From Candidatus Heimdallarchaeota archaeon (GTDB taxonomy: Archaea > Asgardarchaeota > Heimdallarchaeia > Heimdallarchaeales > Heimdallarchaeaceae): DNA of 25,949 bases. A model generated the notes under the pieces. That model had not been told where the DNA came from and made no database searches. It worked only from the letters and a program-made list of their open reading frames with translations. Shown in pieces: positions 523 to 23,836 of the stretch. The stretch spans positions 1 to 25,949 of the forward strand of contig JAEOTE010000053.1 in the NCBI GenBank assembly GCA_016839945.1, in the 5' to 3' direction. Position 1 is the stretch's first letter. Each line of letters starts with the position of its first letter. Position numbers and translations under genes: made by a program.

Positions 523-2262
523 TCAGGATAAAACAACTTCAGATACAATGAATTTATCATATATTTCTTGGTACATAGATACTAGGGATTCAGTAGCTAT
601 TTCTTTTTCAAACATCCTCTTTAGTTTGTTTTCTGGTTTTCTTCTCTCCCATAGTTTGTGGATTCTTTTATATAAAGATTTTAAGAATGACCAGAGTAGA
701 AGAGGAACGAAAAGGATTATTTTTAACAAAACTTTACCTAATTTCAAAAAGAATTTACCAAAATCTATATCCATATCTTTCTTGAGATTGAATTTCTTTC
801 CTTTTTCAACTACAGAGAAGTATGTATCAGTAAAAGCTGTATTAATTTCTCGAAATCTTTTTCTGATTAATCGTGGAATTGTTAAAGTTTTCTTTGAGAA
901 AATTGTCTTAACTAGGGTAAAAATTATGTGTTTAATGTAAAGAATCAAGGCAAAAAAAACCAAAAAGAATGGCATTAAAAATGCTACAATAGAGACACCA
1001 ATCCCTTTCAAGATTAACACCCATGTTGGGAGATTCTTGAAAATATCAATTAAATATTGTTGAGCTCCTAAAGCTAATGAAATCGCTAATTTATTGTATT
1101 CAATATCAGTCATTATTTGTTTATACTTTTTCTCTTGTTTTGCTATTCCTTTCAATGCACCATTTATCATCATGACTTTCAATATATACTCATCAATCTC
1201 TTCATTTTTTACCTTCAGAACAATATCTTGAAGAGCATTTTCAGCTTTTTCTTCTGTTAATTTATTATTTAATGCGAATCTTTCTAGTGCTTCGTCTCTC
1301 CTCCATGGCAAAACAGATGATTCTTTACTCCATATCAATAAAGCGAATGTTCTTGAAGTTTTTTGAGTTATTTTTGTCAAGTCAAGTTTCTCTAAAGGTA
1401 TTTCTGCTTTTCTTAATAGTATCTCTAACATTTCTTTTGATCTATCTGGAACTTCTTTAACATCCATAGCCAGCAAACCTTGAACTTTTCCTTTTATTGT
1501 TTCAGCTTCTTCTAAAAGTTCTATTTTAAATTCCTCAAAGGTTTCAGAAGAAATTGGAGGTGCGTCAAAAAAACTGAAAGACGAACGAACAGCATAATAT
1601 GGGAGTGAGAAAAAGTTTTCAAGATCCTGAAATACTGCAGCCCATCTGTATGCTCCTAATCTTAGCATATTTTTACTTGTTTCATGAAATATTACATAGA
1701 TAGGACCAAATATTGTAGAAATAAAAGAAAGGAGCAACATAATGGTACCTATCATTAAAATAATGACTATTCTTGGTAAAGCTGGAAACCACCCTTGTAT
1801 AATTAATATCAAAGATTCTCCCCAGATTATTGTAGGAACTAGAATAATAAGTATTGGAGAAATCCCCATACTTATTGCCTGTCCAATTCCTCTTCTTAAT
1901 GGATAAGCTTTCTTTACCTTCTGTTGATTGATAACCAATTCATCAAGTTCTTTTGAAACTTCCATGACTTCTTTGGATTTCTTTCCAGCGAATAATTCAG
2001 ATACAGAAAGAGTTGTTTGTCTTAACATTTGTAGAAAAGGAACGTATTCCCTCAATGCTTGGGGAATAAAAATATCGAAAAGAACTAAGATGAATTTTGC
2101 TAAAATAGATAGGGTAGTGAAAATAACAGAAAGAAAATTGAATGAAAATCTAGCTGCTTTGGGTAACATCTTTTTCTCTTTGTCAGCTTCTTCCTCTGTT
2201 ACTCCTTCTTCCTTTGTTGCTTCTTCTTTAAGTTCTTCAGAATTTTTTTCCGAAGCTGACAT
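523..2262 (-). CDS. Uncharacterised multi-pass membrane protein, paralog 1 of 3
   Basis: 587-aa ORF (track start TTG 2286; ATG at 2262 preferred, with a TATA-like ATTAAAA ~25 nt upstream). Several hydrophobic segments; shares P..LRE.VP, AYP..RG.G, FGPIY..FH, YRW, FD.PPIS.ET, FAL.IW.KE.S..PW, GALKG, D.EYN..A.SLALGAQ.Y and ES.V.MYQEIY.K with 2320-4026 and 22127-23836. Confidence 0.9.
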   Translation of the reverse strand: MSASEKNSEELKEEATKEEGVTEEEADKEKKMLPKAARFSFNFLSVIFTTLSILAKFILVLFDIFIPQALREYVPFLQMLRQTTLSVSELFAGKKSKEVMEVSKELDELVINQQKVKKAYPLRRGIGQAISMGISPILIILVPTIIWGESLILIIQGWFPALPRIVIILMIGTIMLLLSFISTIFGPIYVIFHETSKNMLRLGAYRWAAVFQDLENFFSLPYYAVRSSFSFFDAPPISSETFEEFKIELLEEAETIKGKVQGLLAMDVKEVPDRSKEMLEILLRKAEIPLEKLDLTKITQKTSRTFALLIWSKESSVLPWRRDEALERFALNNKLTEEKAENALQDIVLKVKNEEIDEYILKVMMINGALKGIAKQEKKYKQIMTDIEYNKLAISLALGAQQYLIDIFKNLPTWVLILKGIGVSIVAFLMPFFLVFFALILYIKHIIFTLVKTIFSKKTLTIPRLIRKRFREINTAFTDTYFSVVEKGKKFNLKKDMDIDFGKFFLKLGKVLLKIILFVPLLLWSFLKSLYKRIHKLWERRKPENKLKRMFEKEIATESLVSMYQEIYDKFIVSEVVLS

Positions 2263-2319
2263 AAGTTTACTTTCTACAATATTCAATTTTAATATTGTGA
2301 AAGTGTCGCTGAGAGTACA

Positions 2320-4026
2320 TCATGATACCAATAAATCTGAAAGTAGCATTTTTTCATAGATTTCTTGATACATTGAAACGAGAGATTCAGTTGCTAATTC
2401 TCTTTCAAAATCTCTTTTCATTTTTTCTTCTTCACTTACTCTTGTCCATATTCTTTTGATTATGTTGTAAATAGACTTGAAAAAAGACCAAAGTAAAAGA
2501 GGTATGAATAAGATAAGCTTAAGTAAGACTTTACCTGCTCTAATTGACAATTTCTTTAAATCTAAACCAAAATCTTGTTTTAAGTTTAGCTCCTTTCCTC
2601 TTTTTTTAACTGAAATATATGTTGTTGAAAAGGTGTTACTTATTTCTCCAAATCTTTGACTAACAAATCTTCCAATTTTTAGTATTCTAAAAGAGAAAAT
2701 TGTTTTAAAAATTGTTACAAAGACATGAATAAAATATGAAATAATAGCTTGTATTAAAACAACAGAAGGAACAAATGGAGCAATTAATGATGTAAAAAGA
2801 TTTCTTGAAAATTTCTTATACCAAGGAATAGGACTGTATTTATCTTTAATATATTGTTGAGCACCCAATGCTAGAGAAATTGCCAATTTATTATACTCTA
2901 TATCAGACATTAATTGTTTGTATTTCTTTTCTTGTTTCGCGATACCTTTAAGGGCTCCAGTTATAACTACTGAAGAATAGAGATCATAACTTAAGAACTC
3001 TTCCTCAAGTTTTTTAATAATTAATTCAAAAGATTTCTTTGCTTCTTTTTCATTCATATTGTAGTTTTTAGCAAATTTCTCACTAGCTCGACCTCTCTTC
3101 CAAGGAAAGATTGAAGACTCCTTCTCCCAAATTAGAAGAGCAAACGTTCTAGCTGTTTCTTCTTTGATCTCAGAGATATCCAAATCACTTAAAGGTAATT
3201 CTGCTTGATTTAATAAATGTTCAAGGCGTTCTTTTGATCTTTCAGGAACATATTGCGAATCTAATGCAATTAAGCTCTGAACTCTCTTTTTCATTGTATC
3301 CAATTCATCGACTATTTCTAGTTTGAAGTCTTGAAACGTTTCGGTTGATATAGGAGGTGAATCAAAAAGTGTAAAACTACTCTTTGCAACATGATAAGGA
3401 ATGGAAAAAAGATTTTCTAAACCTTGATAAATCGCAGCCCATCTGTAACCTTTGTATTTCATCATGATTGAACTACTTTCATGAAATAGAGAATAAATTG
3501 GACCAAAAATTGTTGCTAACCATGAAGCTAAAAGAAGTCCCGTACCAAATAATGAAATAGTCCAAAATTCAGGCAATCCAGTAGCGTCTTTGATTAAACC
3601 TAGTAAATCAATATACTCAATACCATAAATTCTACCAATAGCAGTAGGTATTCCAATAAAAACAATTGGAGTTACAGCTAGATTTATTACTTCTCCAAAA
3701 CCTCTTCGGAGAGGATATGCTTTTATCATTCTTTGTTCTCTTAGAACTAATTCATCAAGTTCTTGTGCTACTTCAACAATTTCTTTTGATTTCTTCCCAG
3801 CGAATAAATTAGAAGCTGTTAAAGCATATTTTCTGTACATTTGAAGAACAGGAACTAATTCTCTCAAACTACGAGGAAAAAAGATGTCAAAAAGTATCAA
3901 TCCAAATCTGCCTATAATCGAAACTAGTGTGAAAAAGCCTGCAATGAAACTGATAAGGAATCTGATTGGCCAAGATAAGTCGTTGTTAGGTTTCTTAACT
4001 TGCTTATCTTTAGGCATCATTTTCAC
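2320..4026 (-). CDS. Uncharacterised multi-pass membrane protein, paralog 2 of 3
   Basis: 568-aa ORF (GTG 4026 or ATG 4020/4017), collinear with its tandem neighbour; identical blocks such as LFAGKKSKE and GALKGIAKQEKKYKQ. Confidence 0.9.
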   Translation of the reverse strand: MKMMPKDKQVKKPNNDLSWPIRFLISFIAGFFTLVSIIGRFGLILFDIFFPRSLRELVPVLQMYRKYALTASNLFAGKKSKEIVEVAQELDELVLREQRMIKAYPLRRGFGEVINLAVTPIVFIGIPTAIGRIYGIEYIDLLGLIKDATGLPEFWTISLFGTGLLLASWLATIFGPIYSLFHESSSIMMKYKGYRWAAIYQGLENLFSIPYHVAKSSFTLFDSPPISTETFQDFKLEIVDELDTMKKRVQSLIALDSQYVPERSKERLEHLLNQAELPLSDLDISEIKEETARTFALLIWEKESSIFPWKRGRASEKFAKNYNMNEKEAKKSFELIIKKLEEEFLSYDLYSSVVITGALKGIAKQEKKYKQLMSDIEYNKLAISLALGAQQYIKDKYSPIPWYKKFSRNLFTSLIAPFVPSVVLIQAIISYFIHVFVTIFKTIFSFRILKIGRFVSQRFGEISNTFSTTYISVKKRGKELNLKQDFGLDLKKLSIRAGKVLLKLILFIPLLLWSFFKSIYNIIKRIWTRVSEEEKMKRDFERELATESLVSMYQEIYEKMLLSDLLVS

Positions 4027-4063
4027 ATCAGTATCATGATATTTTCATTTTTCGAGAAAGATT

Positions 4064-6019
4064 TTATTTATACAGTATGTTCTTAATATAATCTTGAATA
4101 AGTTCTATCTCTATTTTAGAACAGATATAATTTTGATAAATTAAATTATCTATACTATCATCTATTTCGGTCTCATCTTTTGATTCTTTTAACATCATCT
4201 TAGATAGTTTTTCTAGCTCTTCTTTTGTTTCTTGACTAGGTATCTTCACTGGTAGATCATGAAGAAACATTGGAAGATAATGTAAGTAATTTCCTAAAAT
4301 TTCTGTCCCTGAGAAAATTACACTGTACAAGAAACTGTAGAATTCACTATTTAGTAGAGCTAGAATAAATTCCAAAGAAAGATTTAGAGATTTTCCTTTT
4401 TCTGTTAAATGACCTAACAAGAAAATATCTTTACTCACATATCCTTCTGTATCAATAGTTGCCCTGATTCTTAATGCATTTTGACAGATAATTATCTTCT
4501 TAGATTTGAAGTATTCATAATCGGGAAAATTATTATTCAATTTCTTGGCTTTTTCTCTATCATAGTCAATCCAATCTCCATCCCAGATGAGTTTATACCT
4601 TTCAATTTCTCTATTTCCTCCAAAAGGTTTACCACCTATGAACTTCACCGGATTCTTCCCAGTAGGTTTAGAGCTAACAAACATCTCTCTAATTCCTTTT
4701 CGGTGAAAAGAAATTGACCAACGAAAACGGATTAAATCACCGAGAGTGTAATCTGATAAACTAAACACTCTTTCAAGGAATTCTACTTTCTTTCTTGGGA
4801 AATACAAAGTTTTGTTCTTCATCTTGTTAAAAAGATCAATTGACACAGTTTCCTTTTTGTCTTCCAAATTCAATGAAGATAAATCTTCTATTTGAACATC
4901 TGGAAATAAATCAATGTAGTTATTTTTTTGTAATTCCTTTTTCAAAATAAGAATAATAGGATAAACAGCTGGTCGAAAAACTCGTTGATGTGCTAAATCT
5001 ACGATTTGATTGATAAGATTTCTAGCTAAAAATCGTTCTCTTAATACTCTAGCATACTTTGATATTAGAAATTTGTTAGGAATTATAAATCCTAATTTTC
5101 CTTTTTCTGACATCATTTCAGCGCCAAGAGATAAGAAGCATGCATAGATATCAAAAGATCCTTTAGCTTCCTCAGGGAAATATCTTTTACATATTGTTTT
5201 AGTTTTTTTATCCATTTTTTTTGATTCTATATATGGAGGATTGCCAACTACAAAATCATACTTCTTTCTTTTTGCTTCTTTGATATACTTCTCTTCGTTG
5301 GTACTATCTGTAACAAGGGAGTTTGTTTTGTAGATATTAAATTTCATTTTATGTTCTAATGGAAAATCGGATTTAAAACAATCAAACAATGTATTAATGA
5401 TGTTTACTTTCGATAAGTATATTGCAATAGGATCTATATCAAATCCATAAATCTTGTCAGAAATTTTTGATATTATTTCCCCAGGAGTTTGATTTTTCTT
5501 CTTCTCACTATCATACATTCTTTGAGCTGCTCTGGTTAGAAATAATCCTGATCCACATGCTAAATCTATAAGATTGTTTTCGCTCTTTTGGTTCTCATAA
5601 AGAGGATATTCCAATTGTGACAAAATATAATCAATTACGGAGATAGGAGTAAAAACAATCCCTTTATCTTGTTTTTTTGAAGAAGAGAGAACCTTTTGAT
5701 ATAACTCTCCTAAATAATCTCTTAATTCATATTGAGCTGAACTTTCTATAAAAGAATCTATTTTTTTGGAAATCTTTCTGAAATCAAAGTCTTGGAAATC
5801 AGTAAAAAATGATGGAAAAGATTGATTTAGTATCTCTTTCTTTTCAGAAATTGAATGAGTACTATCTATAAATCCATAGTATTCTGCTTTTTTTAGTAAA
5901 ATAAATTCACTAAGTTTCTGGAAATTCTTGAGTAAGAGTTTATGACCTCTAAAATTTGTTAGTTTATTCTGCTCATTGATTAATCTATATGAGCTGTTGA
6001 GATCTGAGAGAATTCCCAT
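4064..6019 (-). CDS. N6-adenine DNA methyltransferase, gamma class (Eco57I/TaqI-like, with TaqI_C-type target recognition domain)
   Basis: Motif X GIVFTP, motif I IDLACGSGLFL, motif II IYGFDIDP, motif IV VVGNPPY, motif VI GFIIPNKFL in gamma order; C-terminal KIIICQ...FILALLNS...LHDLPV. AAGGAG Shine-Dalgarno upstream (6026-6031). Confidence 0.9.
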   Translation of the reverse strand: MGILSDLNSSYRLINEQNKLTNFRGHKLLLKNFQKLSEFILLKKAEYYGFIDSTHSISEKKEILNQSFPSFFTDFQDFDFRKISKKIDSFIESSAQYELRDYLGELYQKVLSSSKKQDKGIVFTPISVIDYILSQLEYPLYENQKSENNLIDLACGSGLFLTRAAQRMYDSEKKKNQTPGEIISKISDKIYGFDIDPIAIYLSKVNIINTLFDCFKSDFPLEHKMKFNIYKTNSLVTDSTNEEKYIKEAKRKKYDFVVGNPPYIESKKMDKKTKTICKRYFPEEAKGSFDIYACFLSLGAEMMSEKGKLGFIIPNKFLISKYARVLRERFLARNLINQIVDLAHQRVFRPAVYPIILILKKELQKNNYIDLFPDVQIEDLSSLNLEDKKETVSIDLFNKMKNKTLYFPRKKVEFLERVFSLSDYTLGDLIRFRWSISFHRKGIREMFVSSKPTGKNPVKFIGGKPFGGNREIERYKLIWDGDWIDYDREKAKKLNNNFPDYEYFKSKKIIICQNALRIRATIDTEGYVSKDIFLLGHLTEKGKSLNLSLEFILALLNSEFYSFLYSVIFSGTEILGNYLHYLPMFLHDLPVKIPSQETKEELEKLSKMMLKESKDETEIDDSIDNLIYQNYICSKIEIELIQDYIKNILYK

Positions 6020-6094
6020 TGTTGTCTCCTTTTCAATACTTGTATAATAAAGTAAGTACTAAAGTTTTTAGGATTCAAACTAGATATATTTACT

Positions 6095-7297
6095 ATGGTA
6101 TCCCGTCATTTACTCTTTGGGGATATCGAAAAAAAAGCTGAAGAAGATCTCAAGCTTCTACTTACGAAAAAAAAACCGCTACCCCAAGAATTCCATTATT
6201 CTCCTTTTATCTTACGTAGTGTTAATGAGAAACTACTAGAAGAAGGAATATCTATAGGACTTGGTTTTTTATCAGATAAAACAATTATAGATGCTTATTG
6301 GAATTCAGTTTCTCTACCTTTAGAAGGAGAAATTCTAGTTCGTATAATATATGGTACACAAATAGGATGCCAAGATGAACTAGTTATATTTTTCAAGAAT
6401 AATGAAGTTAAGAAAAAAATGCAACAGGAAATATCAGAAATCCTGAAATTAAAACCTAAGAATAACTTAGTATATAGATTTAGATCTATGATTAGAAATG
6501 AAGATGTTGATAATATCTGTGAAAAAATCAGAGCTATTTCTTATGAGAAGAATATCATTATTCAAACAGAAATGATTTATTTAGAAAGAAAAGAAATTCA
6601 GGTAAATGAGACTAAATTTGTTTGGAATATTCCTTCAACAGTTAAGCTGAAATGTAAAAGATGCAACCTTTGTGAACTCCCAAGCCATTATTCTGTAAAT
6701 CCTATACCTAATATTATGGAAGAAGATGAGGAAAAAAAATGTTTTACATTTGAGAATCGCATATGTTTTCCTTGCAATTTACCAACTCTCTCCTATCATG
6801 AAATTGAAAATATATCGATGAAAAAAAGCTTACAAATTCAAGATTTTAGTAGACCTGTTCTAGCTTTTGAAGATACAAAGACTAACAATTTTGATTACTT
6901 GTTTGCTTTGAAACAAAAGAATGGTTTATGTGTTTTTCAGAATCTGAAAAATAATAGCTGTTTGATCCATAATATATCACCTTTGAATTGTAAATCCTAT
7001 CCTCTACTAATATCAGATTTAAGTGAAAAGGAAATTATCATAGAACTAGATTTTTCATGTCCTGGAATTGAAATTAAAGGTTCCATAAATTTTCAGAAAT
7101 TATCCAAAAAATACTTTCAATTACTAAAAACTAGAAGTAAATTACCAAATAGAAATATAGCATCATTATTACAAACTTGGAAAGATCTTGTGATTTGGAA
7201 GGATAAAGAGAGAGTTAAACATGATGAAGTAGAAATAGCTTATGATATGTTTTTTCAAGAATATTTGGAATTTAAAGAGAAAACAAAAACAAAATGA
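6095..7297 (+). CDS. YkgJ-family (zinc/iron-chelating CxxCxxCC-like) cysteine-cluster protein with an unknown N-terminal domain
   Basis: CKRCNLC, then GLCVFQ...SCLIHNISPLNCKSYP and DFSCPGI, matching the C.F...C.I...RP..C..YP / CPG signature. AAAGTTTTTA BRE/TATA-like motif at 6061-6070. Confidence 0.75.
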   Translation: MVSRHLLFGDIEKKAEEDLKLLLTKKKPLPQEFHYSPFILRSVNEKLLEEGISIGLGFLSDKTIIDAYWNSVSLPLEGEILVRIIYGTQIGCQDELVIFFKNNEVKKKMQQEISEILKLKPKNNLVYRFRSMIRNEDVDNICEKIRAISYEKNIIIQTEMIYLERKEIQVNETKFVWNIPSTVKLKCKRCNLCELPSHYSVNPIPNIMEEDEEKKCFTFENRICFPCNLPTLSYHEIENISMKKSLQIQDFSRPVLAFEDTKTNNFDYLFALKQKNGLCVFQNLKNNSCLIHNISPLNCKSYPLLISDLSEKEIIIELDFSCPGIEIKGSINFQKLSKKYFQLLKTRSKLPNRNIASLLQTWKDLVIWKDKERVKHDEVEIAYDMFFQEYLEFKEKTKTK

Positions 7298-7303
7298 TTG
7301 TTT

Positions 7304-7795
7304 CTACATATATCTTACTTTTAATCTATTGAACTTAATTCTACATGTATTGCAGAAAGTCGAAGATTTCTTAATCAAAGTCTCAAAGTTATCTGAATAT
7401 CGCATAACACAGTCCTCTCTGCATGCATTCAATCCTAGAACCAATCCAACTTGATATGCAACTTCCTTTGCTGCAAGTGTTCTAGTCGCCATCTTTGAAG
7501 TTGATACAATTGATCCTTTTGAAGACTCAGCATATCCAAAAACATGTTTATCATCAGCTGCTAAAGGTTCTTCTATTAGCCAAAGAAAATAAGTTATTCC
7601 ATCTCTTAATACATTGTTTAGAAGTGTTTTAGCATTGAATGCTTTGACATTTACATCCCAAGCATTTTGCCTTGGTATACGTACTCCTACTGACCTGAAT
7701 TGTATGTCAAAAACATCTTTAAGCATCCTCTCAACATGTTCCGACACCTCATCAGTGACTTTCTCACAGTAGTATATCTTGTATTCCCTAGGCAA
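7304..7795 (-). CDS. Archaemetzincin (peptidase M54)-like protein with a degenerate catalytic zinc motif
   Basis: HVFGYA..., SIVSTSKM, KEVAYQVGLVLGLNAC..DCVMRYS...KSSTFCNTC aligns to the M54 consensus KE..HE.GH..GL.HC...CVM..S......K...FC..C. TTG start. Confidence 0.8.
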   Translation of the reverse strand: MPREYKIYYCEKVTDEVSEHVERMLKDVFDIQFRSVGVRIPRQNAWDVNVKAFNAKTLLNNVLRDGITYFLWLIEEPLAADDKHVFGYAESSKGSIVSTSKMATRTLAAKEVAYQVGLVLGLNACREDCVMRYSDNFETLIKKSSTFCNTCRIKFNRLKVRYM

Positions 7796-8402: not shown

Positions 8403-9119
8403 ATGATAGATTTAGAAAAAGGAATATTCTTTGATTGGAAAGTTAAGAAATCTTTACTAGAAGAAGCTTTAACTCATCCAAATTATAACAACATATATCC
8501 AGATAAAGAAAATTTTGAGAGATTAGAGTTTTTAGGTGACGCAATATTAGATGTTTTGACAGCAGAATGGCTTTATCATAATATCCAAGAAGATGTAGGC
8601 GTTCTTTCAAAACTTCGTTCACTTGTGGTTCAAACTGATTCATTAGCTGAAATTGGAAACTCTCTGAAACTTCAAGATCATCTGTTGAGAGAACCAAAAT
8701 ATGAAGTTACAAGAACAGATATTGAAGATTGCTTAGAAGCTATTTCAGGGGCTTTATATTTATCAAATGACATTGAAACTACAAGAGATTTTTTCAATAA
8801 ATTCTTCTCAAGCAAACTGGAATCATTTAAGGAGAAATTACCAAACAAAGAAGAAAGAAGTAAACTACTAAAAAGAGCAGTATGTGAAGACAATCCTAAA
8901 AATAGACTACAAGAGTTCTGTCAGAAAAGAAGACTAGATTTACCAAGCTATAAAGTTGTAGGGAGAGAAGGATTTGATCATGATCCAATCTATCAAGTTG
9001 AATGTACTCTCCAATATAAAAACAAAGAATATACTAGTATAGGAGAAGGAAGAAGAGTTAAAATTGCTGAATATGACGCTGCTGAAGACGTTTTAGAACA
9101 ATTGGAAAACTCAAAATAG
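8403..9119 (+). CDS. rnc: Ribonuclease III (catalytic domain plus dsRNA-binding domain)
   Basis: ALTHPNY, signature NFERLEFLGDAILD, second acidic pair EDCLEAISGALY, dsRBD NPKNRLQEFCQK...PSY...GEGRRVKIAEYDAA. Confidence 0.95.
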   Translation: MIDLEKGIFFDWKVKKSLLEEALTHPNYNNIYPDKENFERLEFLGDAILDVLTAEWLYHNIQEDVGVLSKLRSLVVQTDSLAEIGNSLKLQDHLLREPKYEVTRTDIEDCLEAISGALYLSNDIETTRDFFNKFFSSKLESFKEKLPNKEERSKLLKRAVCEDNPKNRLQEFCQKRRLDLPSYKVVGREGFDHDPIYQVECTLQYKNKEYTSIGEGRRVKIAEYDAAEDVLEQLENSK

Positions 9120-13722: not shown

Positions 13723-14193
13723 TTATTTTTCTTCTTTTTTTTCCTCTAAAGGAATTAGTTCTAACTGTCTTCCATATCCTGTGTCAATTTCTCTGATTAT
13801 TTCTAAAGATATTAGTTTCTCAACCCTCTCTCTGACAATTCTTCTTGAAGCTGAACCCCTTTCTTTTCTTACTTGTTCAGTTAATTGTGAAATGTTTAAT
13901 CTCTCCTTTCTTTCTAAAGCTGATATAATTGCTTTTGAGATTTCATCAAATTTGATATCTGGATTCAGTTCAAGTATTCTGTCTTTCATAGAAAGAGTTT
14001 GAGATAACATAGTAAAAGGAGCTTTAGTAATCTGTAGAGTGGATGTTAGGATTTGTAAAAGATTCATCATTTCTTTGAGTTCAGGATTAGAATCAGAAAC
14101 CCTATGCTGAAGATTATTTATTTGAAGTATAACATAATTAATTTTCTCTTCTAATTCTGTTATCCTGTTTTCTAATGTTTCATCTTCAGACAT
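13723..14193 (-). CDS. N-terminal coiled coil plus C-terminal winged-HTH protein, putative regulator (last gene of a 3-gene operon)
   Basis: Heptad LENRITELEEKINYVILQINNL; DEISKAIISAL...LNISQLTEQVRKERGSASRRIVRERVEKL...GYGRQLEL HTH with wing. Confidence 0.8.
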   Translation of the reverse strand: MSEDETLENRITELEEKINYVILQINNLQHRVSDSNPELKEMMNLLQILTSTLQITKAPFTMLSQTLSMKDRILELNPDIKFDEISKAIISALERKERLNISQLTEQVRKERGSASRRIVRERVEKLISLEIIREIDTGYGRQLELIPLEEKKEEK

Positions 14194-14243
14194 ACATATC
14201 CACTTAGAGAATCATTTAAGTCTTATTCCTGGACTTAGATTAT

Positions 14244-14540
14244 TTATTTCTTTACATTTATTTTAATAGCTTCTTTTATCATCTCTTTTGGAGAATCCCC
14301 AAAAGAAGATAGTTTCACCAAGTTTCTCAAGCTTAATCCATTACCATATGATTTTGCGATTTCTCTTCTGAAATCTCTTGGAATCCCAAATTGCTTTAAA
14401 TTTCTTCTAATTATTATCATATTTCTAGATTTTTTTGTAGATCCTGAAATAATTAGATATAGGAAGAGATAGGGGAATATAACCCCCAAGTAAGTAATAT
14501 ATAGCGTCGACCAAAAAATCGCCCATAAGGTTTTAGTCAT
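14244..14540 (-). CDS. Small single-TM membrane protein with a basic cytoplasmic tail (middle gene of the operon)
   Basis: ATG at 14540 preceded by AGGTGG SD-like motif (track start GTG 14549 overlaps it); hydrophobic N-terminus, then RRNLKQFGIPRDFRREIAKSY. Confidence 0.7.
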   Translation of the reverse strand: MTKTLWAIFWSTLYITYLGVIFPYLFLYLIISGSTKKSRNMIIIRRNLKQFGIPRDFRREIAKSYGNGLSLRNLVKLSSFGDSPKEMIKEAIKINVKK

Positions 14541-14562
14541 ACATTCCACCTATTGGTATTTT

Positions 14563-14940
14563 TTAGTCATCTTCTTCTTCGTCTTTCTTTGTCTTCAATT
14601 TTATTTCTTTGTCAATATTTTGGGGTATGTTTTTCATAGCAGAACCCAAAACATCAAATGATTTGGAAAAATTCAAAACAATTTCTCTAACCATATCTTC
14701 AGGTAGTCCTTGTTCTTGAAGTTCTTTGTAAAGAGATCCAATTCCTTTTCCATAGTTTTCAGCGATTGATGGATCATATATTGATCCAAATATGTTCTTC
14801 AGTAAGTCTGGGACTTGTGTAGAAACAACACCTAGAATCTCTCTTATTTCTTCAGCATCAGAAGAAGACTTTTTCTTAGTTTTCTTAATCTCTTTTTCTA
14901 TTTTTTCACTCAATTTATCACCAAGTTCATTGAAATCCAA
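14563..14940 (-). CDS. Small helical hypothetical protein (first gene of the operon)
   Basis: TTG start with GAGGTGA SD 6 nt upstream (14947-14953); core EIREILGVVSTQVPDLL...YGKGIGSLYKELQEQGLPEDMV. Confidence 0.8.
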   Translation of the reverse strand: MDFNELGDKLSEKIEKEIKKTKKKSSSDAEEIREILGVVSTQVPDLLKNIFGSIYDPSIAENYGKGIGSLYKELQEQGLPEDMVREIVLNFSKSFDVLGSAMKNIPQNIDKEIKLKTKKDEEEDD

Positions 14941-17612: not shown

Positions 17613-17624
17613 AACCAAAAAACC

Positions 17625-18452
17625 TCATAGATGAGAATTAATCCATTTTTCTAAATCTGCGAAAGCTTCATCTCGTTTTTCTTTGGTTTCAGTATACATC
17701 TCATGCCATCCATCAGGATAAATCTTAACTGTTAAGTCTGTGTTTTTAAGATCATCTATTAGCTCATCTATATTGATAACTAATTTATCTAATTCTCCTT
17801 TCTGAATTAAAACAGGAATTTTGATTGCTCCAATTTTGTCTTTAATTTCAGGATAATGTTTAACGAAAGCATATCCATATGATGCAGTAGCTTTTTTGTA
17901 ATTTATTAAAGGATCATTAATATAATCTTCAACTGATTCTGGGTCAGATGAAAGTTCCTCTGGAATGATGCCTGCTGATCCCATAAAAGTTGGCCAAATT
18001 TTAACCATAACACGAGCTAATAATTCAAGTGGTTTTGGGAGAGGTACTCCAGTTCCAGATCCTGATAAAACTAATCCTTTCAGCTCTTTCTGATATTTTA
18101 TTGCGTATCGTTGACTTACTAAAGAACCCATGGAGTGTCCAACAAGGAATAGTGGTTTTCCTTTTTGCTCTTTTTTGATTATTTTTGTTAATTGATAACA
18201 ATCTTCAACAAATTCATCAAAACTTCCAATATGATTTCTTCTTCCTTCACTTTTTCCATTACCACGATGATCATTTCCATAAACAGCAATTCCTGATGAA
18301 GTAAGATAGTCCACAAGGTGCTTATATCTTCCAATGTGTTCTACACCGCCATGAACAATTTGAACAATAGCTTTTGGTTTTTCAGGAACCCAAGATTGGT
18401 AATATATTTTATAGTTTTTTAAACCTTGAAAGTGGTTTTCATTATATTGCAT
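17625..18452 (-). CDS. Alpha/beta hydrolase, lysophospholipase/monoacylglycerol lipase family
   Basis: IVHGGVEHIGRY, DHRGNGKS, nucleophile GHSMG, acid GELDKLV, His in DGWHEM. ATG 18452 (MQYNENHF) preferred over track start 18509. Confidence 0.92.
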   Translation of the reverse strand: MQYNENHFQGLKNYKIYYQSWVPEKPKAIVQIVHGGVEHIGRYKHLVDYLTSSGIAVYGNDHRGNGKSEGRRNHIGSFDEFVEDCYQLTKIIKKEQKGKPLFLVGHSMGSLVSQRYAIKYQKELKGLVLSGSGTGVPLPKPLELLARVMVKIWPTFMGSAGIIPEELSSDPESVEDYINDPLINYKKATASYGYAFVKHYPEIKDKIGAIKIPVLIQKGELDKLVINIDELIDDLKNTDLTVKIYPDGWHEMYTETKEKRDEAFADLEKWINSHL

Positions 18453-18568
18453 AAAAATAAGAAAACAGAACTTATTCAAAAAACTTACTAGAGAGTATAA
18501 TATCTGCATAAAAGTTAAAACACAAAGGTTTTAAGGACTTCAATGATTAATCAATAAGAAGGGATACC

Positions 18569-19576
18569 ATGTCTTTAAGAGGATTCATTATCAGAAGAGT
18601 TCTTTATATTGTTCCTCTTATGTTAGGTATAACTTTAATGAATTTTACAATGATAAATGTAAGTCCAGGTGATCCCGTTATTGTAAGATTAGGATTAATT
18701 CAGTGTAATACAGTAGAATGTTACAATAATGCGTACAACAGAGAAGCAATAGAAATGGGTCTGTTAAGCAAAGATCTATACACAGTTCCATGGTTTGAAA
18801 GATATATTGATTTTGTTAGCAATTTATTACATCTAGACTTTGGAAGAAGCTGGTATTATGAACAAGCAGGACAAGGAGTAGAAATTACGGAACTGCTAAA
18901 AACTCATGCACCTTATACAGTTATCCTAAACTTAATATCCTTTATACTATCGCTTGTTCTTTCAACTGCAATAGGTGTAGTATCAGCAACAAGAATGAGA
19001 TCATTCTGGGATAGAAGTCTAACAGTAGCAATGTTACTCGGATATAGTATGCCTCTTTTCTGGATCGCAAAGTTGTTAATGTATGTCTCATACAATCTAT
19101 TCAATTTTACAGGAGTAACAAATAAGGACGCATTTGTTAAACCATTAGTTTTAAATCCAAATTTCTACAAATACTTGATTTTGCCAACATTAGCGTTGAC
19201 TCTAGGACATCTTGTGTTTATGGCGAGATTAATGCGATCACAATTATTGGAAATACTAAGACAAGATTATGTAACAACGGCAAAGGCAAAAGGAGTACCA
19301 AAAAGAGGAGTAATTTACAAACATGCCTTCAGAAACGGATTGTTACCAATTGTAACGATAGTAGGAAACTCACTACCAGGATTACTAAGCGGAAGTGTGA
19401 TGGTAGAGACAATTTATGGGTGGCCTGGGCTAGGAACGATATTTCTGCAAGGAGCTCTATTCAGAGACTACCCTCTTATGATGGCTACGAACACGATCTT
19501 CCCATTCTTATTCTTAGTGGCGCGTCTGCTTACGGATGTTACTTATGTGTTCATAGATCCTCGAATAAAATATTGA
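18569..19576 (+). CDS. ABC peptide/nickel transporter permease, OppB/DppB type (copy 1)
   Basis: PGDP, LDFG.SW, EAA loop LRQDYVTTAKAKG, KHAFRNGLLP, GWPGLG, RDYP, DPRIKY end. Confidence 0.95.
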   Translation: MSLRGFIIRRVLYIVPLMLGITLMNFTMINVSPGDPVIVRLGLIQCNTVECYNNAYNREAIEMGLLSKDLYTVPWFERYIDFVSNLLHLDFGRSWYYEQAGQGVEITELLKTHAPYTVILNLISFILSLVLSTAIGVVSATRMRSFWDRSLTVAMLLGYSMPLFWIAKLLMYVSYNLFNFTGVTNKDAFVKPLVLNPNFYKYLILPTLALTLGHLVFMARLMRSQLLEILRQDYVTTAKAKGVPKRGVIYKHAFRNGLLPIVTIVGNSLPGLLSGSVMVETIYGWPGLGTIFLQGALFRDYPLMMATNTIFPFLFLVARLLTDVTYVFIDPRIKY

Positions 19577-19591
19577 TATACATATTTTCTT
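19556..19591 (+). repeat. 36-bp direct repeat, left copy (oppB1 codons DPRIKY-stop plus 15 nt)
   Basis: GATCCTCGAATAAAATATTGATATACATATTTTCTT, identical to 20865-20900. Confidence 0.95.
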
Positions 19592-19666
19592 ATTTTATCT
19601 TAGGCTTGCGAAAAATTTTTCTATATCAATTTTCTATAATTGTTTATTAGAAACTTACTGATTCTT

Positions 19667-20773
19667 ATGAAAAATATAAAAGCAGTCTCTCTTCTTTTCA
19701 CTTCAATACTTTTACTGATAATCCTTTGTCAATCAGTTAAATTGACTCAAACTGAAATTAACTCCTTAAACCAAAGCAACGCTCTCAATGATTCTGAATC
19801 AATACTCATAGGTGATTATCTTTATGATTGGCATAATTATTCTTTTGAAGGTGAAGGCACAGAAGAAAGGCCGTTTATTATTAAAGATTTAAATATTACT
19901 TCAGAAGACAATACTCCTTTTTTAGGGGGATATTCTGGCAATCCTCAATATGGTATTAGAATTGCAAATACTGACAAATATTTTAAAATTGAAAACTGTT
20001 TTATCAATGTTTATGGACCCGCTGTGCGCCTAATTAATGTTTCCTCGTGTATTGGTATAAACAAAATAATTTCTTCTAACTCGGATTATAATCGAATAAA
20101 CTTAGAGGGTGTTTCTAATTTAGCAATAACAAATAATTCTGTAGGTGTTTCAGGTATAAATTGTTCATCTATTTATATTTCAGAAACGACAATGGATAGT
20201 ACAGATGGAATTACGTTTAAAAATTCACATGCAATATCCATTACTAAATGTCAAATTACCGGTTGTTATAGGGGCATGTCTATAACAGATTCTAATAGCG
20301 TTATTATAGATAATAATACAATCTCTTCTTGTACTATAAGAGGCATATCAATGAGAAAGGTCTCTAATTCCATAATTTCTGAAAATGTTTTCAAAGAGAA
20401 TGGTCATGAAAGTATAGGTGAACTCTTTTTTGGAGGGGGTATCGTGTTGGCTGAAGCATCTCATTGTGTAATATATTCCAATTCATTTATAGATAACTAT
20501 ATTTTTGAAGAATCACAATGCTACGATAGTAAAAACAATGAAACTTATTGGTATAATGAACAATTAAAGATGGGAAATTATTGGAACGATTTGAAGAAAA
20601 ATGTTGATGAATATCAAATTGCTGGTCCATCTAACTCAAAAGATATCTATCCTTTGAGGAAACCACACTATCGGGATGCTTCCTTTACTAATTTTACGTT
20701 TTTACAGATTATTGTCCCTCTTACTTTACTTACATTTTTTATAATTAGAAGATCAAAAAATAAGGAATTATAG
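19667..20773 (+). CDS. NosD-like right-handed parallel beta-helix surface protein
   Basis: Signal peptide; GEGTEERPFII; repeated I.NN.I....GI turns; GNYWND...KDIYPL cap; C-terminal TM plus RRSKNK. ATG 19667 preferred over TTG 19640. Confidence 0.88.
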   Translation: MKNIKAVSLLFTSILLLIILCQSVKLTQTEINSLNQSNALNDSESILIGDYLYDWHNYSFEGEGTEERPFIIKDLNITSEDNTPFLGGYSGNPQYGIRIANTDKYFKIENCFINVYGPAVRLINVSSCIGINKIISSNSDYNRINLEGVSNLAITNNSVGVSGINCSSIYISETTMDSTDGITFKNSHAISITKCQITGCYRGMSITDSNSVIIDNNTISSCTIRGISMRKVSNSIISENVFKENGHESIGELFFGGGIVLAEASHCVIYSNSFIDNYIFEESQCYDSKNNETYWYNEQLKMGNYWNDLKKNVDEYQIAGPSNSKDIYPLRKPHYRDASFTNFTFLQIIVPLTLLTFFIIRRSKNKEL

Positions 20774-20864
20774 TACTTATTAGTAATCTCTTTATTTTTA
20801 GTTTTATATTGCATATTTCATTTTGTCACTTAGTTGTATCTCTCAAATAATTTGTGTTTTCATC

Positions 20865-20900
20865 GATCCTCGAATAAAATATTGATATACATATTTTCTT
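20865..20900 (+). repeat. 36-bp direct repeat, right copy (orphan oppB 3'-end fragment)
   Basis: Identical to 19556-19591 at an offset of 1309 bp; degenerate leftward extension reads tgt gtt ttc atc gat cct cga ata aaa tat tga (CVFIDPRIKY-stop). Confidence 0.95.
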
Positions 20901-20967
20901 CTCTTTTCTACGAAATCTATTTAAATTCTTGATTTTATAAACTATGCATATATAATCCTGTGATATT

Positions 20968-21975
20968 ATGTCTCTGAAAGGATTTATTGTTAAAAGATTT
21001 CTTTATATCATCCCAGTTATGTTAGGTATTACACTATTAAATTTCACAATAATTCAAACAGCTCCAGGTGATCCTGTAATTGTAAGATTGGGACTGATTC
21101 AGTGTAATACGGTGGAATGTTACAATAATGCGTATAACAAGGAAGCTATAGAAATGGGCCTGTTAAGCAAAGATCTATACACAATTCCTTGGTTTGAAAG
21201 ATATATAGATTTTGTAAATAATTTATTACATCTTGATTTTGGAAAAAGCTGGTACTATCAACAAGCAGGGGAAGGAAGGTCAATATCGCAGATAATAGCT
21301 GAGAAAGCTGTTTATACAATAACCCTCAATCTAATATCATTTTTATTTTCTCTACTCTTATCAACTGCTATTGGAGTAATCTCAGCAACTAGACAAAACT
21401 CTTTCTGGGACAGAAGTTTAACTGTAGCAATGTTACTTGGATACTCATTACCTCTTTTCTGGCTAGCTAAGTTGTTAATGTTAATGTCCTTCTATATGTT
21501 CAAATTCACAGGAGTAGCAAACAAGGATGCATTTAAGACTCCTTTAATTACCAACGGGAATTTTTACAAATATCTTATCCTACCAACACTTGCTTTAACA
21601 TTAGGAAGCTTAGTCTTCATGGCTAGATTAATTAGATCTCAACTGCTAGAAATATTGCGACAAGATTACGTAGTCACTGCAAAAGCAAAAGGATTAGATA
21701 GAAGAGCAGTAATTTACAAACATGCTTTCAGAAATGGTCTTCTTCCAATAGTTACTCTTGTTGGTCTTAATCTTCCATACATGATTGTTGGTTCTGTTAT
21801 GATAGAAAGAGTCTTCGGATGGCCAGGTTTGGGAACAGTATTCCTTGAAGGCGCACTATTTCGTGACTACCCCCTTATGATGGCTTCTAATACCATCTTT
21901 CCTTTGCTCTTTCTCGTTTTTAGACTACTTACGGATATCACGTATGCCTTCATTGATCCTCGAATCAAATATTAA
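20968..21975 (+). CDS. ABC peptide/nickel transporter permease, OppB/DppB type (copy 2)
   Basis: 335 aa, gap-free alignment to copy 1, roughly 78% identical by my manual count; same motifs. Confidence 0.95.
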   Translation: MSLKGFIVKRFLYIIPVMLGITLLNFTIIQTAPGDPVIVRLGLIQCNTVECYNNAYNKEAIEMGLLSKDLYTIPWFERYIDFVNNLLHLDFGKSWYYQQAGEGRSISQIIAEKAVYTITLNLISFLFSLLLSTAIGVISATRQNSFWDRSLTVAMLLGYSLPLFWLAKLLMLMSFYMFKFTGVANKDAFKTPLITNGNFYKYLILPTLALTLGSLVFMARLIRSQLLEILRQDYVVTAKAKGLDRRAVIYKHAFRNGLLPIVTLVGLNLPYMIVGSVMIERVFGWPGLGTVFLEGALFRDYPLMMASNTIFPLLFLVFRLLTDITYAFIDPRIKY

Positions 21976-22126
21976 TTTCTATTCTAATTTTTATCATTAA
22001 TTTTTTGATAAATGTTGTAATTTTGTAGATCTTAGTTGAGACAATGCCATTATTCTGGGTCGAAAAAAATCATTTAGATAATAGCAAAAAATTAAAAATC
22101 TCCCCCTCTTAAAATAAACTGAAATA

Positions 22127-23836
22127 ATGACTATTAGTTTTACTAAAATACTCAAATCCATGCTTCTCCCTTTTATGTGGGTTATTGGTATCTTGCTATA
22201 CCTAATAGTTGTTCTTGCTAAATTTTTCTTCATGTTGTATGAGACTCTTATCCCTCGAGGATTAAGAGAACTTGTTCCTATTTTGAATCTTTGGCGAAAA
22301 TATTTAGTCTATGTTTCAAATCTCTTCTCTAGCCACGAGAAGATTGAGTTAATTAAAGTTGAAGAAGAATTTGATGAAATGATAATTGTTGAGGATCGTA
22401 TCAACAAAGCCTATCCTATTCAACGAGGAGTCGGTGAAACTTATGATCATGTTTTGATTCTAGCTTTAGTTATTGTTGCTTCTTTACTTATCATCCAAAG
22501 TCAAACTGCTAGTTTCGATGTTCTACTTGATGAAATAGTTAGTAGAGTTCCATGGTTTCAAACATTAAGTGAGAGAGCTTTATGGTTAGTAATAACAGTT
22601 ATAGCTATTATTTGTTCAACAGTCATGGGTATGTTGAGTTTCATAGCAACAGTTTTCGGTCCAATATATGCCCTCTTTCATAAATCTAGTTTGAGAATGG
22701 TTAGAATGGGGGCATACAGATGGGGATCTTATTTTCAAAGATTAGAGGATTTGTTTGCCTTGCCGTATCTAGCAAGCAAGGCGAGTTTTTCGTTTTTCGA
22801 TGCCCCTCCAATATCACCTGAGACGTATGAAGAATTTAAGATTGATTTAATGGGTGACTTAAGCGATTTAAGAAAGAGATTCACTAATGTTCTTAATCTC
22901 AATCCGACATCTCTTTCTGAAAAAACCCAAGCAGTTTATAAAAAATTACTTTCCTCAACGATAGAAGATAGGTTGGACATGACGCAAGTAGAGGATTCAA
23001 TTTCTCGAGCTTTTGCTTTAGAAATATGGCAGAAAGAAACGTCTCTTTTTCCATGGAAAAAAGAACCAGGTTTAGCCCTATTTGCTGAGCGAAATAATCT
23101 ATCTTACAAAGAAGCTAGAACCACCTTTGGTTTTGTTACTCAGAAACTTCAAGATAAATTTGTTTCAAAACCTTTCTATAGTTCAATTCTTCTTACTGGT
23201 GCTTTGAAGGGTGTACTAGCAGTTGAAAGTAAATATGATATGCCTTTTAGTGATTTAGAATATAATCAAATTGCTTTTTCTTTAGCATTAGGTGCACAAA
23301 GATATATTATAGATCATTTCACTAGACCTAAATTCTTCAAAAGATTAGGAATTAAACTAAAAAACGTTTCATATGGTTTTGCTGTCCCCTTTATAGAATT
23401 TTTTGATATTTTTATCTCATATGGAAAGCATATTGGACGCAATTTTAAAGAGATTTTTTCAAAAGGTTGGACTAAAAGAGCTGGTATATTCATTAGTTCA
23501 AGATTCACAGAAATTCAAACAGGTTTATTCAAGGTAGTTTTTCCCGAAGAAAAAACTGCTGAAACAGAGGAATCAACAAAGAAGGAATTAAAAGAAGCTT
23601 TTGGTATGTTATGGAAAAGCATCCTCTTTGTTTTCAAAGTCATTCTAGCATTACCACTGAGTTTATTCTACATGCTAAAATTCTTCTATCAGCTCTTTAT
23701 AGGGATATGGGAATTTAGAAAACCTGAAGTCAGAAAGAAAAGGAAATTCGAAAAAGATTTAGCTAAAGAATCTATGGTTGCTATGTATCAAGAAATTTAC
23801 TCGAAGATGGTACTGGAAACATTCTACTATACTTGA
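22127..23836 (+). CDS. Uncharacterised multi-pass membrane protein, paralog 3 of 3 (most divergent)
   Basis: PRGLRELVP, KAYPIQRGVGE, FGPIYALFH, GAYRW, SFSFFDAPPISPET, RAFALEIWQKETSLFPW, GALKG, DLEYNQIAFSLALGAQRY, ESMVAMYQEIYSK. Confidence 0.9.
   Translation: MTISFTKILKSMLLPFMWVIGILLYLIVVLAKFFFMLYETLIPRGLRELVPILNLWRKYLVYVSNLFSSHEKIELIKVEEEFDEMIIVEDRINKAYPIQRGVGETYDHVLILALVIVASLLIIQSQTASFDVLLDEIVSRVPWFQTLSERALWLVITVIAIICSTVMGMLSFIATVFGPIYALFHKSSLRMVRMGAYRWGSYFQRLEDLFALPYLASKASFSFFDAPPISPETYEEFKIDLMGDLSDLRKRFTNVLNLNPTSLSEKTQAVYKKLLSSTIEDRLDMTQVEDSISRAFALEIWQKETSLFPWKKEPGLALFAERNNLSYKEARTTFGFVTQKLQDKFVSKPFYSSILLTGALKGVLAVESKYDMPFSDLEYNQIAFSLALGAQRYIIDHFTRPKFFKRLGIKLKNVSYGFAVPFIEFFDIFISYGKHIGRNFKEIFSKGWTKRAGIFISSRFTEIQTGLFKVVFPEEKTAETEESTKKELKEAFGMLWKSILFVFKVILALPLSLFYMLKFFYQLFIGIWEFRKPEVRKKRKFEKDLAKESMVAMYQEIYSKMVLETFYYT

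Follow-up and report, generated by a model that had tools for sequence, protein, structure and literature searches.

What are the three related membrane proteins encoded in a 25,949-nucleotide stretch of DNA from a Candidatus Heimdallarchaeota archaeon (the whole of the stretch analysed, referred to here as the window), and what might they do? An earlier sequence-only reading had described them as intact members of one unrecognised family and suggested that they could be subunits of a hetero-oligomeric membrane complex. We find that the genes, here named A, B and C (Table 1), are functional paralogues; the orphan family to which they belong consists of polytopic, all-helical membrane proteins that are ~540-700 aa long. 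As for their function, our best guess is an oligomeric device that resembles a channel or transporter and occurs as specialised isoforms, and to this we assign a probability of roughly 0.35.

Table 1. Positions in the window of the three paralogues, the parts of B and two genes given for context.
Feature	Position	Strand	Remarks
Paralogue A, from the TTG start at 2286	523-2286	-	587 aa
Paralogue A, from the ATG start at 2262	523-2262	-	579 aa; public gene call P0030
Paralogue B	2320-4026	-	568 aa; public call P0004 is 565 aa
B residues 21-180, N-terminal membrane module	3487-3966	-	TM1 through end of TM3
B residues 181-409, juxtamembrane block and helical soluble domain	2800-3486	-	
B residues 410-568, C-terminal part	2323-2799	-	
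Type II gamma-class N6-adenine DNA methyltransferase (Eco57I/N6_Mtase + TaqI_C)	4064-6019	-	context
OppB/NikB-like ABC permease	20968-21975	+	context; in three genera next to the C-type gene, in one orientation or the other
Paralogue C	22127-23836	+	569 aa; oldest split

The three paralogues and their architecture

The open reading frames of A, B and C are free of internal stops, and a three-way alignment bears out the earlier description of a single architecture with a common set of motifs. These are P..LRE.VP, AYP..RG.G, FGPIY..FH, YRW, LE..F..PY, FD.PPIS.ET, R.FAL.IW.KE.S..PW, GALKG, D.EYN..A.SLALGAQ.Y and ES.V.MYQEIY.K. The alignment contains 150+ invariant columns, and the sharing of motifs far exceeds chance expectation; A and B are 50% identical, and C is 33-37% identical to both (37% to A in this alignment). 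Synonymous differences between the paralogues are saturated (pS 0.64-0.74) and dN/dS between orthologues is 0.09-0.18, and the genes are therefore old duplicates under purifying selection, as the sequence-only reading had proposed. A begins with an acidic/Lys-rich tail of ~40 aa that precedes the core with its five hydrophobic segments. B is separated by 37 bp from the methyltransferase gene upstream of it and by 33 bp from the TTG start of A downstream. Most B orthologues, including the B genes of sister species, carry a duplicated N-terminal TM1 module, which is missing from the B of the window.

Five hydrophobic segments, TM1 to TM5, were identified from family-mean hydropathy (residues 21-47, 113-131, 155-177, 410-430 and 498-518 in B numbering) and flank a soluble domain of ~230 aa. 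In the N-terminal module of B, TM1 is followed by the amphipathic helix P..LRE.VP, the loop L1, AYP..RG.G and the TM2/TM3 hairpin, which encloses a variable and K/R-poor loop, L2; FGPIY ends TM3. The juxtamembrane block that comes next contains FH, YRW, LE..F..PY and FD.PPIS.ET. The C-terminal part comprises TM4, the Lys/Arg-rich L4 (net charge +7), TM5, a cationic amphipathic helix and the conserved C-terminal helix ES.V.MYQEIY.K. That exactly nine residues follow this last motif is true of the three genes in the window, but not of the family, in which nine residues were counted in 25 of the 50 members with the motif pattern and 3-13 in the others. Pairwise hhalign comparisons of the N-terminal, soluble and C-terminal parts revealed no internal repeats (probability at most 1%).

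The full-length AF2 model is all-helical and of moderate confidence (pLDDT 65.5), with L1 modelled at a pLDDT below 50; a separate model of the soluble domain, based on 65 aligned sequences, was likewise of moderate confidence (pLDDT 73.9). TM1, TM4 and TM5 are flanked by strongly amphipathic cationic helices, and almost all loop flanks carry positive charge. According to the positive-inside rule, L2 looks external and L4 looks cytoplasmic, signals that conflict if TM4 spans the membrane.

Orphan status, distribution and history

The sequence-only reading had not recognised the family, and we likewise obtained no characterised match from sequence, profile or fold searches. With A, B and C, the best matches in Pfam and NCBIfam had E values of 0.011-0.07 over 15-30 residues, far below the cut-offs, and PADLOC gave no match; across 36 diverse members, no Pfam family was matched at E<=1 by more than 3 members. 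A profile search of PDB sequences returned 0 matches at E<=10, and neither the whole protein nor residues 186-410 had a usable match in the ESM Atlas. Among 1.84 billion representative proteins, a profile search retrieved 28 matching clusters, composed of family members only, while word-indexed searches with B and with a 36-sequence profile produced 76-77 matches, all from the same family. All named relatives are Heimdallarchaeia, and the host is an Asgard archaeon.

Fold comparisons of the moderate-confidence models with the PDB and with BFVD gave best Foldseek E values of 0.63 (whole model), 2.2 (soluble domain) and 0.46 (against BFVD); what the whole model retrieved were generic helical hairpins only. 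With VIA-align, calibrated such that helical matches are meaningful from a Z of about 13, the wide search matched single helical hairpins only, with a best Z of 9.1 for the whole model and of 7.2 over 52 residues for the soluble domain alone. The top rows for the full model belong to PspA/Vipp1/ESCRT-III (PspA, Z 9.1 over 92 residues, rmsd 6.2; Snf7, Z 8.7 over 61 residues); this match is below the meaningful Z and limited to residues 126-225, which include TM3, and Pfam searches, including those with the 36 members, yielded no ESCRT-III/PspA profile match. The family is an orphan, assignable to no known family or fold, although a known fold is possible given the moderate confidence of the models. 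ResB/CcsB proteins of cytochrome c synthesis were considered because a CcdA-like gene adjoins the family gene in one sister family; we rejected them, as there is no PF05140 match, the model is all-helical, and H182 and H434 are conserved in the window's family only. Because the order's other families have G/E/R/V in place of these two residues, we also rejected a His-ligated haem or metal site.

Orthologues are already public as hypothetical proteins, for example K9W45_02555 (Ca. Heimdallarchaeum aukensis), K9W46_02950 (Ca. H. endolithica) and HeimAB125_12720, none of them characterised or placed in a family; we found no mention of orthologue locus tags in the literature searched, nor a paper that combines Heimdallarchaeum, hypothetical and membrane protein. 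Heimdallarchaeaceae orthologues are full-length homologues that are 44-78% identical to B and have its motifs and architecture. Ca. Heimdallarchaeum differs from the window in encoding two copies, an undivided AB and a C, rather than three.

Among 400 Asgard genomes, the family is present in 45 of the 47 that belong to one order of the Heimdallarchaeia, the Heimdallarchaeales, and in 0 of the 353 others, so that the suspected lineage specificity is upheld at the sensitivity of HMMER. Genomes of three other families in the order mostly have a single copy, and those of the genus with Ca. Heimdallarchaeum and of a sister genus have two; in the window's own genus the number is 2 or 3, and most of its species retain three paralogues. 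Three genera of the window's family (g1, g10 and g13) have both an AB-type and a C-type gene. An IQ-TREE phylogeny of 65 genes (A clade support 100) indicates a single ancestral gene, one duplication in the window's family that gave rise to C and AB, and a later tandem duplication in its genus that gave rise to A and B, after which one or the other copy was lost in particular lineages. The alternative that this tandem duplication followed the divergence of the B-only species is disfavoured by an AU test (p 0.03).

Within the window's genus the order methyltransferase, family gene(s), EamA transporter forms a conserved slot. By tblastn synteny, a single A-type gene lies between the methyltransferase and EamA genes in G004 and G007 and a single B-type gene in G008; B-type-only genomes with the same slot are G002, G005, G008, G012 and G018. 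As these congeners carry only an A-type or only a B-type gene in the same position, A and B are not obligate partners. The A/B locus is syntenic core chromosome, flanked by genes for RNase III, archaemetzincin and dipeptidase. Neighbours vary by family and include the methyltransferase, EamA, an OppB-like permease, a CcdA-like protein, radical SAM, SufBD/SufC, RIO kinase, eIF2-gamma and acetyl-CoA synthetase; no partner or pathway gene is conserved near family genes across the order. Guilt by association fails as a functional clue because the neighbours differ between families.

Conservation and possible functions

All 65 members, at identities down to ~23%, have an L1 of exactly 65 aa and a soluble domain of 230-233 aa; these invariant lengths suggest a rigid, machine-like build. 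Over the whole family, conservation is 0.65-0.78 in the juxtamembrane and soluble motifs versus 0.33-0.5 in the TM cores. Within paralogues, TM2 and TM3 reach 0.66-0.78, equal to the soluble motifs, which suggests that the membrane helices are constrained rather than passive anchors. TM1, TM2 and TM4 are kept within each paralogue and diverged between paralogues, being nearly unrelated between AB and C (0.08-0.19; C differs from A and B in its TM2 and TM4), while all share the soluble motifs. Such divergence is the pattern of isoforms that would have different membrane-side specificities.

Family-wide invariants are mainly Pro, Gly and aromatic residues with a few scattered charges. G175-P176 at the end of TM3 is invariant throughout; in the 50-sequence alignment A2, T162 and P420 are invariant and P127, G161, S168 and T172 near-invariant, and in alignment A3 both P420 and P509 are at least 80% conserved. 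The most conserved block, at the membrane-water boundary, includes invariant Y194 and E204 and near-invariant D222; R293, D395 and E461 are further invariant charges. There is no Cys conserved family-wide, no charged or polar residue conserved family-wide within the TM cores, and no family-wide His. We saw no catalytic-looking motif, and the sequence-only reading had likewise recognised no catalytic or metal-binding one.

In the channel- or transporter-like reading, the protein would assemble into a rigid oligomer embedded in the membrane, which would let something through or gate its passage; the ancestral form would have been a homo-oligomer. Its mode would be that of few-TM oligomeric channels and transporters with a large helical soluble domain on the membrane and the most conserved motif ending a pore-side helix, a position that FGPIY..FH...YRW at the end of TM3 could occupy. 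The three paralogues would act as specialised isoforms with partial redundancy that combine a common soluble "engine" with differing membrane-embedded helices, and not as obligatory subunits of one A-B-C complex. Oligomeric channels with few TM segments and a large helical soluble domain include the CorA/Mrs2, bestrophin and MscS types, and the analogy extends to the few TM segments per chain, the long helices running from soluble domain to membrane and the top motif at the end of a TM helix. Nevertheless, the family has no sequence, profile or convincing fold match to them (the Mrs2 match, Z 5.7 over one helical hairpin, is within noise) and no GMN-like or other known channel signature. Several observations count against a channel or transporter: the number of hydrophobic segments is only five, the TM cores lack a family-wide charged or polar residue, the topology signals conflict, both AF2 models are of moderate confidence, and neighbourhoods across the order are heterogeneous.

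The protein could instead be a membrane-anchored scaffold or adaptor, whose helical domain is held on the (probably cytoplasmic) surface to bind proteins or lipids or to shape the membrane, with no transport; we regard this as somewhat unlikely. The peak of conservation in the juxtamembrane and soluble motifs rather than the TM cores points this way, as do invariants of a structural kind with no catalytic set. The cationic amphipathic helices beside TM1, TM4 and TM5 suit a membrane-surface scaffold just as well as a channel, and the positive charge on nearly all loop flanks fits a protein mostly on one face of the membrane. However, such invariance of motifs and absence of indels are rare in scaffolds and membrane shapers, among orthologues TM2 and TM3 equal the soluble core in conservation, and no partner gene is conserved across the order.

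A bolder form of the channel- or transporter-like reading, which we consider unlikely, is that the Heimdallarchaeales invented a membrane channel or transport machine of a structurally new class, with a fold absent from the PDB; its Heimdallarchaeaceae isoforms (AB/C, then A/B) would possibly form mixed oligomers with differing membrane-side specificities.

The sequence-only reading had favoured A, B and C as subunits of a hetero-oligomer and expected three consistent orthologous subfamilies; that they are obligatory subunits of one complex now seems quite doubtful. It would agree with the purifying selection on three paralogues in most species of the genus, the tandem arrangement of A and B, the co-occurrence of AB-type and C-type genes, and TM helices kept within and diverged between paralogues, as for co-adapted heteromeric interfaces. 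Yet the three other families of the order mostly manage with one copy and two genera of the window's family with two, and species with only A or only B retain the same syntenic slot, a result close to the erratic copy number that the sequence-only reading itself had named, together with the lack of a predicted inter-paralogue interface, as speaking against a complex. A heteromer of AB and C limited to the window's family is possible.

It is improbable that the protein is an enzyme working at the membrane interface on a lipid or lipid-linked substrate, with its active site in the FGPIY...PPIS.ET block. The position of this block at the membrane-water boundary, its Y194, E204 and D222, and the invariant R293, D395 and E461 could be read in favour of an enzyme, but the multi-acidic, His or Ser/Cys motifs of known membrane transferases and hydrolases are missing, His residues are not family-wide, no pathway genes are conserved nearby, and no enzyme family or fold was matched.

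Two further proposals have hardly any probability. The Oxa1 superfamily (YidC, Get1, EMC3, TMCO1 and archaeal DUF106/Ylp1; PF01956) has a similar N-terminal order of TM segment, charged helical loop and TM hairpin, and the order TM1, 65-aa L1, TM2/TM3 is compatible with the three-TM core of such insertases, which has a cytosolic coiled coil between TM1 and TM2 and forms a hydrophilic groove, with the reservation that L1 is poorly modelled and that the topology signals conflict; a divergent Oxa1/YidC/Get1/EMC3/DUF106-type insertase is nonetheless contradicted by hhalign probabilities of 0.99-1.3% when 20 aligned Heimdall DUF106 proteins were compared with N-terminal, full-length and C-terminal profiles of the family, by the lack of a PF01956 or YidC match at E<=1 in 36 members, by a canonical PF01956 gene already present in 30 of 31 genomes searched, by fold matches that include no insertase, and by a size three times larger, with an extra 230-aa domain and two more hydrophobic segments. 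Equally remote is an accessory or effector role in a restriction-modification or defence system around the N6-adenine methyltransferase. Throughout the window's family the gene for this enzyme sits directly upstream of the AB-type gene; the two run in the same direction in the window, G001 and Ca. H. aukensis, three genomes from two genera, and the gaps in the window are 37 bp and 33 bp. It is, however, unlinked to family genes elsewhere in the order and was never seen beside a C copy in neighbourhoods across it; the core-chromosome setting and the PADLOC result also disagree.

Significance for the Heimdallarchaeales

The newness of the family lies in the lack of an assignable known family or fold, and not in a demonstrated new mechanism. 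Newly worked out here are the duplication history, the A-only and B-only congeners, the paralogue-specific divergence of TM segments, the failed link to Oxa1/DUF106 and the duplicated TM1 module. No archaeal lineage is closer to eukaryotes than the Heimdallarchaeia, whose membrane biology has hardly been explored by experiment. Searches found no member of the family in the remaining orders of this class, in the further Asgard classes covered or in other representative clusters, and it therefore bears on the physiology of the Heimdallarchaeales and not directly on eukaryogenesis. Near-universal in this order, under strong purifying selection, with indel-free domains and repeatedly duplicated, it marks cell biology specific to the Heimdallarchaeales.

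An order-restricted orphan family

The three paralogous membrane-protein genes of the window (A, B and C) are intact by ORF listing and translation, as the sequence-only reading had it, and every motif it quoted is present in their three-way alignment, in which A is 50% identical to B and 37% identical to C. The three proteins and their homologues, hereafter the family, match no Pfam, NCBIfam or PADLOC family, and the family profile had 0 matches among PDB sequences. A search of 5.8e9 proteins matched 76 clusters, all of them Heimdallarchaeia "hypothetical proteins" without Pfam domains; by profile, only 28 clusters were matched among 1.84e9 representatives. In six-frame profile searches, a family gene was found in 45 of the 47 genomes of the order (Heimdallarchaeales), in none of 36 genomes from other orders of its class, and in none of 353 Asgard genomes outside the order overall. 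Two out-of-order matches with E ~0.005 are noise, one having internal stops and the other being a marginal 16-bit match. The proposal of an unrecognised, lineage-specific family therefore stands, as an orphan restricted to one order. Exactly three copies, A, B and C, are present in the assembly that the window comes from (3.0 Mb, 88% complete). A literature search found no paper on the family, whose sequences are public yet unannotated.

Coordinates of the family genes and of other features in the window and in loci of relatives
Feature	Position	Strand	Details
Paralogue A	523-2286	minus	587 aa from TTG start; 579 aa from ATG at 2262 (public gene call and sequence-only reading)
Paralogue B	2320-4026	minus	568 aa
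Type II N6-adenine methyltransferase	4064-6019		
400-aa ORF	6095-7297	plus	divergent from methyltransferase
RNase III, bacterial-type	8403-9119	plus	Pfam Ribonuclease_3 and dsrm
Three consecutive small ORFs	13723-14940	minus	156, 101 and 125 aa
Their counterparts in a congener	L015:9984-11149		
OppB/NikB-like ABC permease, first	18569-19576	plus	335 aa
NosD-like beta-helix protein	19640-20773		
OppB/NikB-like ABC permease, second	20968-21975	plus	335 aa
Paralogue C	22127-23836	plus	569 aa
B orthologues with duplicated N-terminal module	L043:1-400; L045; L047; L074; L068; L015:16956-17260		sister species
CcdA-like DsbD_TM gene	L006:6749-7450	minus	sister family
CcdA-like DsbD_TM gene	L007:10119-10796	plus	sister family
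CcdA-like DsbD_TM gene	L008:7313-7993	minus	sister family
CcdA-like DsbD_TM gene	L009:9791-10507	plus	sister family
CcdA-like DsbD_TM gene	L014:1343-2038	minus	sister family
Isolated open frame	G005:C101:41144-41236		31 codons

Structure searches likewise leave the family without an assignable known kind. The AF2 full-length model of B (20 helices, pLDDT 65.5, pTM 0.55) was matched by nothing in Foldseek searches, where the best E was 0.63 for PDB and 0.46 for BFVD, and its VIA-align comparison with 48,161 chains returned only helical-hairpin rows (PspA, Z 9.1; Snf7, Z 8.7) that lie below the tool's helical noise level. ESM Atlas offered no usable neighbour. The soluble domain was also folded by itself, with an alignment of 65 sequences taken from genome loci; for this model (pLDDT 73.9, pTM 0.66), the best matches had Z 7.2 over 52 residues and, in Foldseek, E 2.2. 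Membership in the Oxa1/DUF106 superfamily was rejected, as N-terminal, full-length and C-terminal profiles each reached only ~1% hhalign probability against a 20-sequence Heimdall DUF106 alignment.

The window (30% G+C) otherwise contains ordinary archaeal chromosomal genes, among them those for an archaemetzincin, RNase III, an M19 dipeptidase, an MFS protein, ABC permeases and an S58 peptidase. Bacterial-type RNase III is uncommon in archaea; this one, which has a C-terminal dsRNA-binding motif, shows conserved synteny in three congeners (53-56% identity) and is therefore a stable resident gene rather than a contaminant. The three small ORFs, whose order is conserved in a congener, have no Pfam match.

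Rigid soluble parts and paralogue-specific membrane helices

Family-averaged hydropathy delimits five hydrophobic segments (B numbering: TM1 21-47, TM2 113-131, TM3 155-177, TM4 410-430, TM5 498-518). TM1 is joined to TM2 by a charged helical loop (L1), TM2 and TM3 form a hairpin around a short variable loop (L2), a domain of ~230 aa lies C-terminal to TM3, the loop from TM4 to TM5 (L4) is rich in Lys/Arg, and the protein ends in a conserved helix. All 65 members, whose pairwise identity falls to ~23%, nevertheless have an L1 of exactly 65 residues and a post-TM3 domain of 230-233 residues; the length of L2 varies between 8 and 51 residues. Within each paralogue, the conservation of TM2 and TM3 matches that of the soluble motifs (segment-wise identity 0.66-0.78). 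Between paralogues, TM1, TM2 and TM4 reach identities of only 0.29-0.40 for A versus B and are nearly unrelated for AB-type (A, B and undivided AB genes) versus C-type genes (0.08-0.19). The soluble domain is thus common to the paralogues while the membrane-embedded part differs. The soluble parts are rigid and free of indels, the membrane helices are paralogue-specific, and purifying selection is strong.

Charge counts give conflicting topologies. L2 is K/R-poor, variable and external-loop-like, which would place L1 and the large domain inside; L4, however, has a net charge of +7 and is cytoplasmic-loop-like, which, should TM4 be membrane-spanning, would place the large domain outside. In extended orthologues, linkers rich in K/R precede TM1, suggesting that this segment begins on the cytoplasmic side. 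Most B orthologues are extended, to 630-700 aa, by an N-terminal duplicate of TM1 and the 'PP.LR' amphipathic module, which the family profile matches a second time. This module is absent from the window's B and from its nearest relative (569 aa), and sister-family members bear ~4 extra N-terminal TM segments instead. The family core shows no detectable internal repeat.

We tentatively favor, at a probability of roughly 35%, an oligomeric device akin to a channel or transporter, the isoforms of which would differ in membrane-side specificity. TM1, TM4 and TM5 are also flanked by strong cationic amphipathic helices, and a scaffold or adaptor at the membrane surface is a possible, if doubtful, alternative to such a channel- or transporter-like device.

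Two duplications followed by lineage-specific losses

Sixty-five genes, excised from genome loci, were placed in an IQ-TREE tree. Its outgroup consists of single-copy genes from three other families, after which come the C clade and then the AB clade. The earliest branches of the AB clade are the two genera that have two copies; the clade also contains separate groups for A (support 100) and B (support 97). In the window's genus, most species share the gene order methyltransferase, B, A, EamA; their C gene lies on the opposite strand at a distance of ~18 kb. When the window's proteins were compared by tblastn with three long contigs from relatives' genomes, the slot between methyltransferase and EamA was occupied by a single gene: an A-type gene in G004 and in G007, a B-type gene in G008. 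A B-type gene without an A-type gene is also found in G002, G005, G012 and G018; the AU test weakly disfavors a split of the B-only species before the duplication (p 0.03, for a group defined after the tree was seen). The family has therefore undergone two successive duplications and then lineage-specific losses. The duplications are old and under purifying selection, as had been proposed: synonymous sites among A, B and C are saturated (pS 0.64-0.74), and orthologue dN/dS is 0.09 for A (window versus G003) and 0.18, 0.13 and 0.10 for A, B and C, respectively (G014 versus G011).

An isolated 31-codon open frame on another contig of G005 matches only the family's conserved C-terminal helix (E 4e-8). 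The species now retains just a B-type and a C-type gene, and the frame may be what is left of a copy that it has lost.

Whether A, B and C, which the sequence-only reading proposed as subunits of a hetero-oligomer, form one obligate complex is a question orthogonal to function, and a yes is improbable. Lineages differ in copy number (1, 2 or 3), and the existence of A-only and B-only species means that either A or B is dispensable, which contradicts such a complex. Mixed oligomers, or a pair of AB-type and C-type proteins within the window's family (Heimdallarchaeaceae), would be compatible with the copy-number pattern.

Conserved residues and gene neighbors

Family-wide invariants are mostly Pro, Gly or aromatic (P51, P59, G175, P176, Y194, P210, P224, P225, F295, F318, G388, Y553), with few charges (E204, R293, D395, E461). 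The alignment of members contains no Cys conserved across the family, and two His conserved in Heimdallarchaeaceae are substituted in other families of the order. An enzyme acting at the membrane interface is accordingly given little weight.

In Heimdallarchaeaceae, a Type II N6-adenine methyltransferase always directly precedes the AB-type gene, a link that looks like inherited gene order, and the C-type gene always adjoins an OppB/NikB-like ABC permease whose orientation varies, an adjacency kept in three genera. In a sister family, the single-copy gene adjoins a CcdA-like DsbD_TM gene in 5/5 loci and in both orientations, the pair being co-directional (47-70 bp gaps) in some and divergent in others; the family lacks conserved Cys/His, so there is no evident link to thiol or haem chemistry. 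Two further families have no methyltransferase, permease or CcdA-like neighbor, and epimerase, RIO kinase and eIF2-gamma are among their neighbors instead. Since no neighbor is shared by the whole order, gene context does not point to a function.

The 400-aa ORF beside the window's methyltransferase has no Pfam, NCBIfam or PADLOC match; it keeps this position in G004 and G007 (44% identity), is missing in G008, and could be a candidate cognate restriction endonuclease. The window's two permease paralogues are 78% identical, and neither has an OppC, ATPase or binding-protein gene beside it; the NosD-like gene follows the first and paralogue C the second.

Oxa1/DUF106 proteins resemble the family solely in their layout of a TM, then a charged loop and a TM hairpin, and 30 of the 31 genomes searched have a canonical PF01956 gene of their own; an insertase is barely credible, as is a role in defence. 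The family is striking for its conservation and its restriction but has no direct tie to eukaryotic features.
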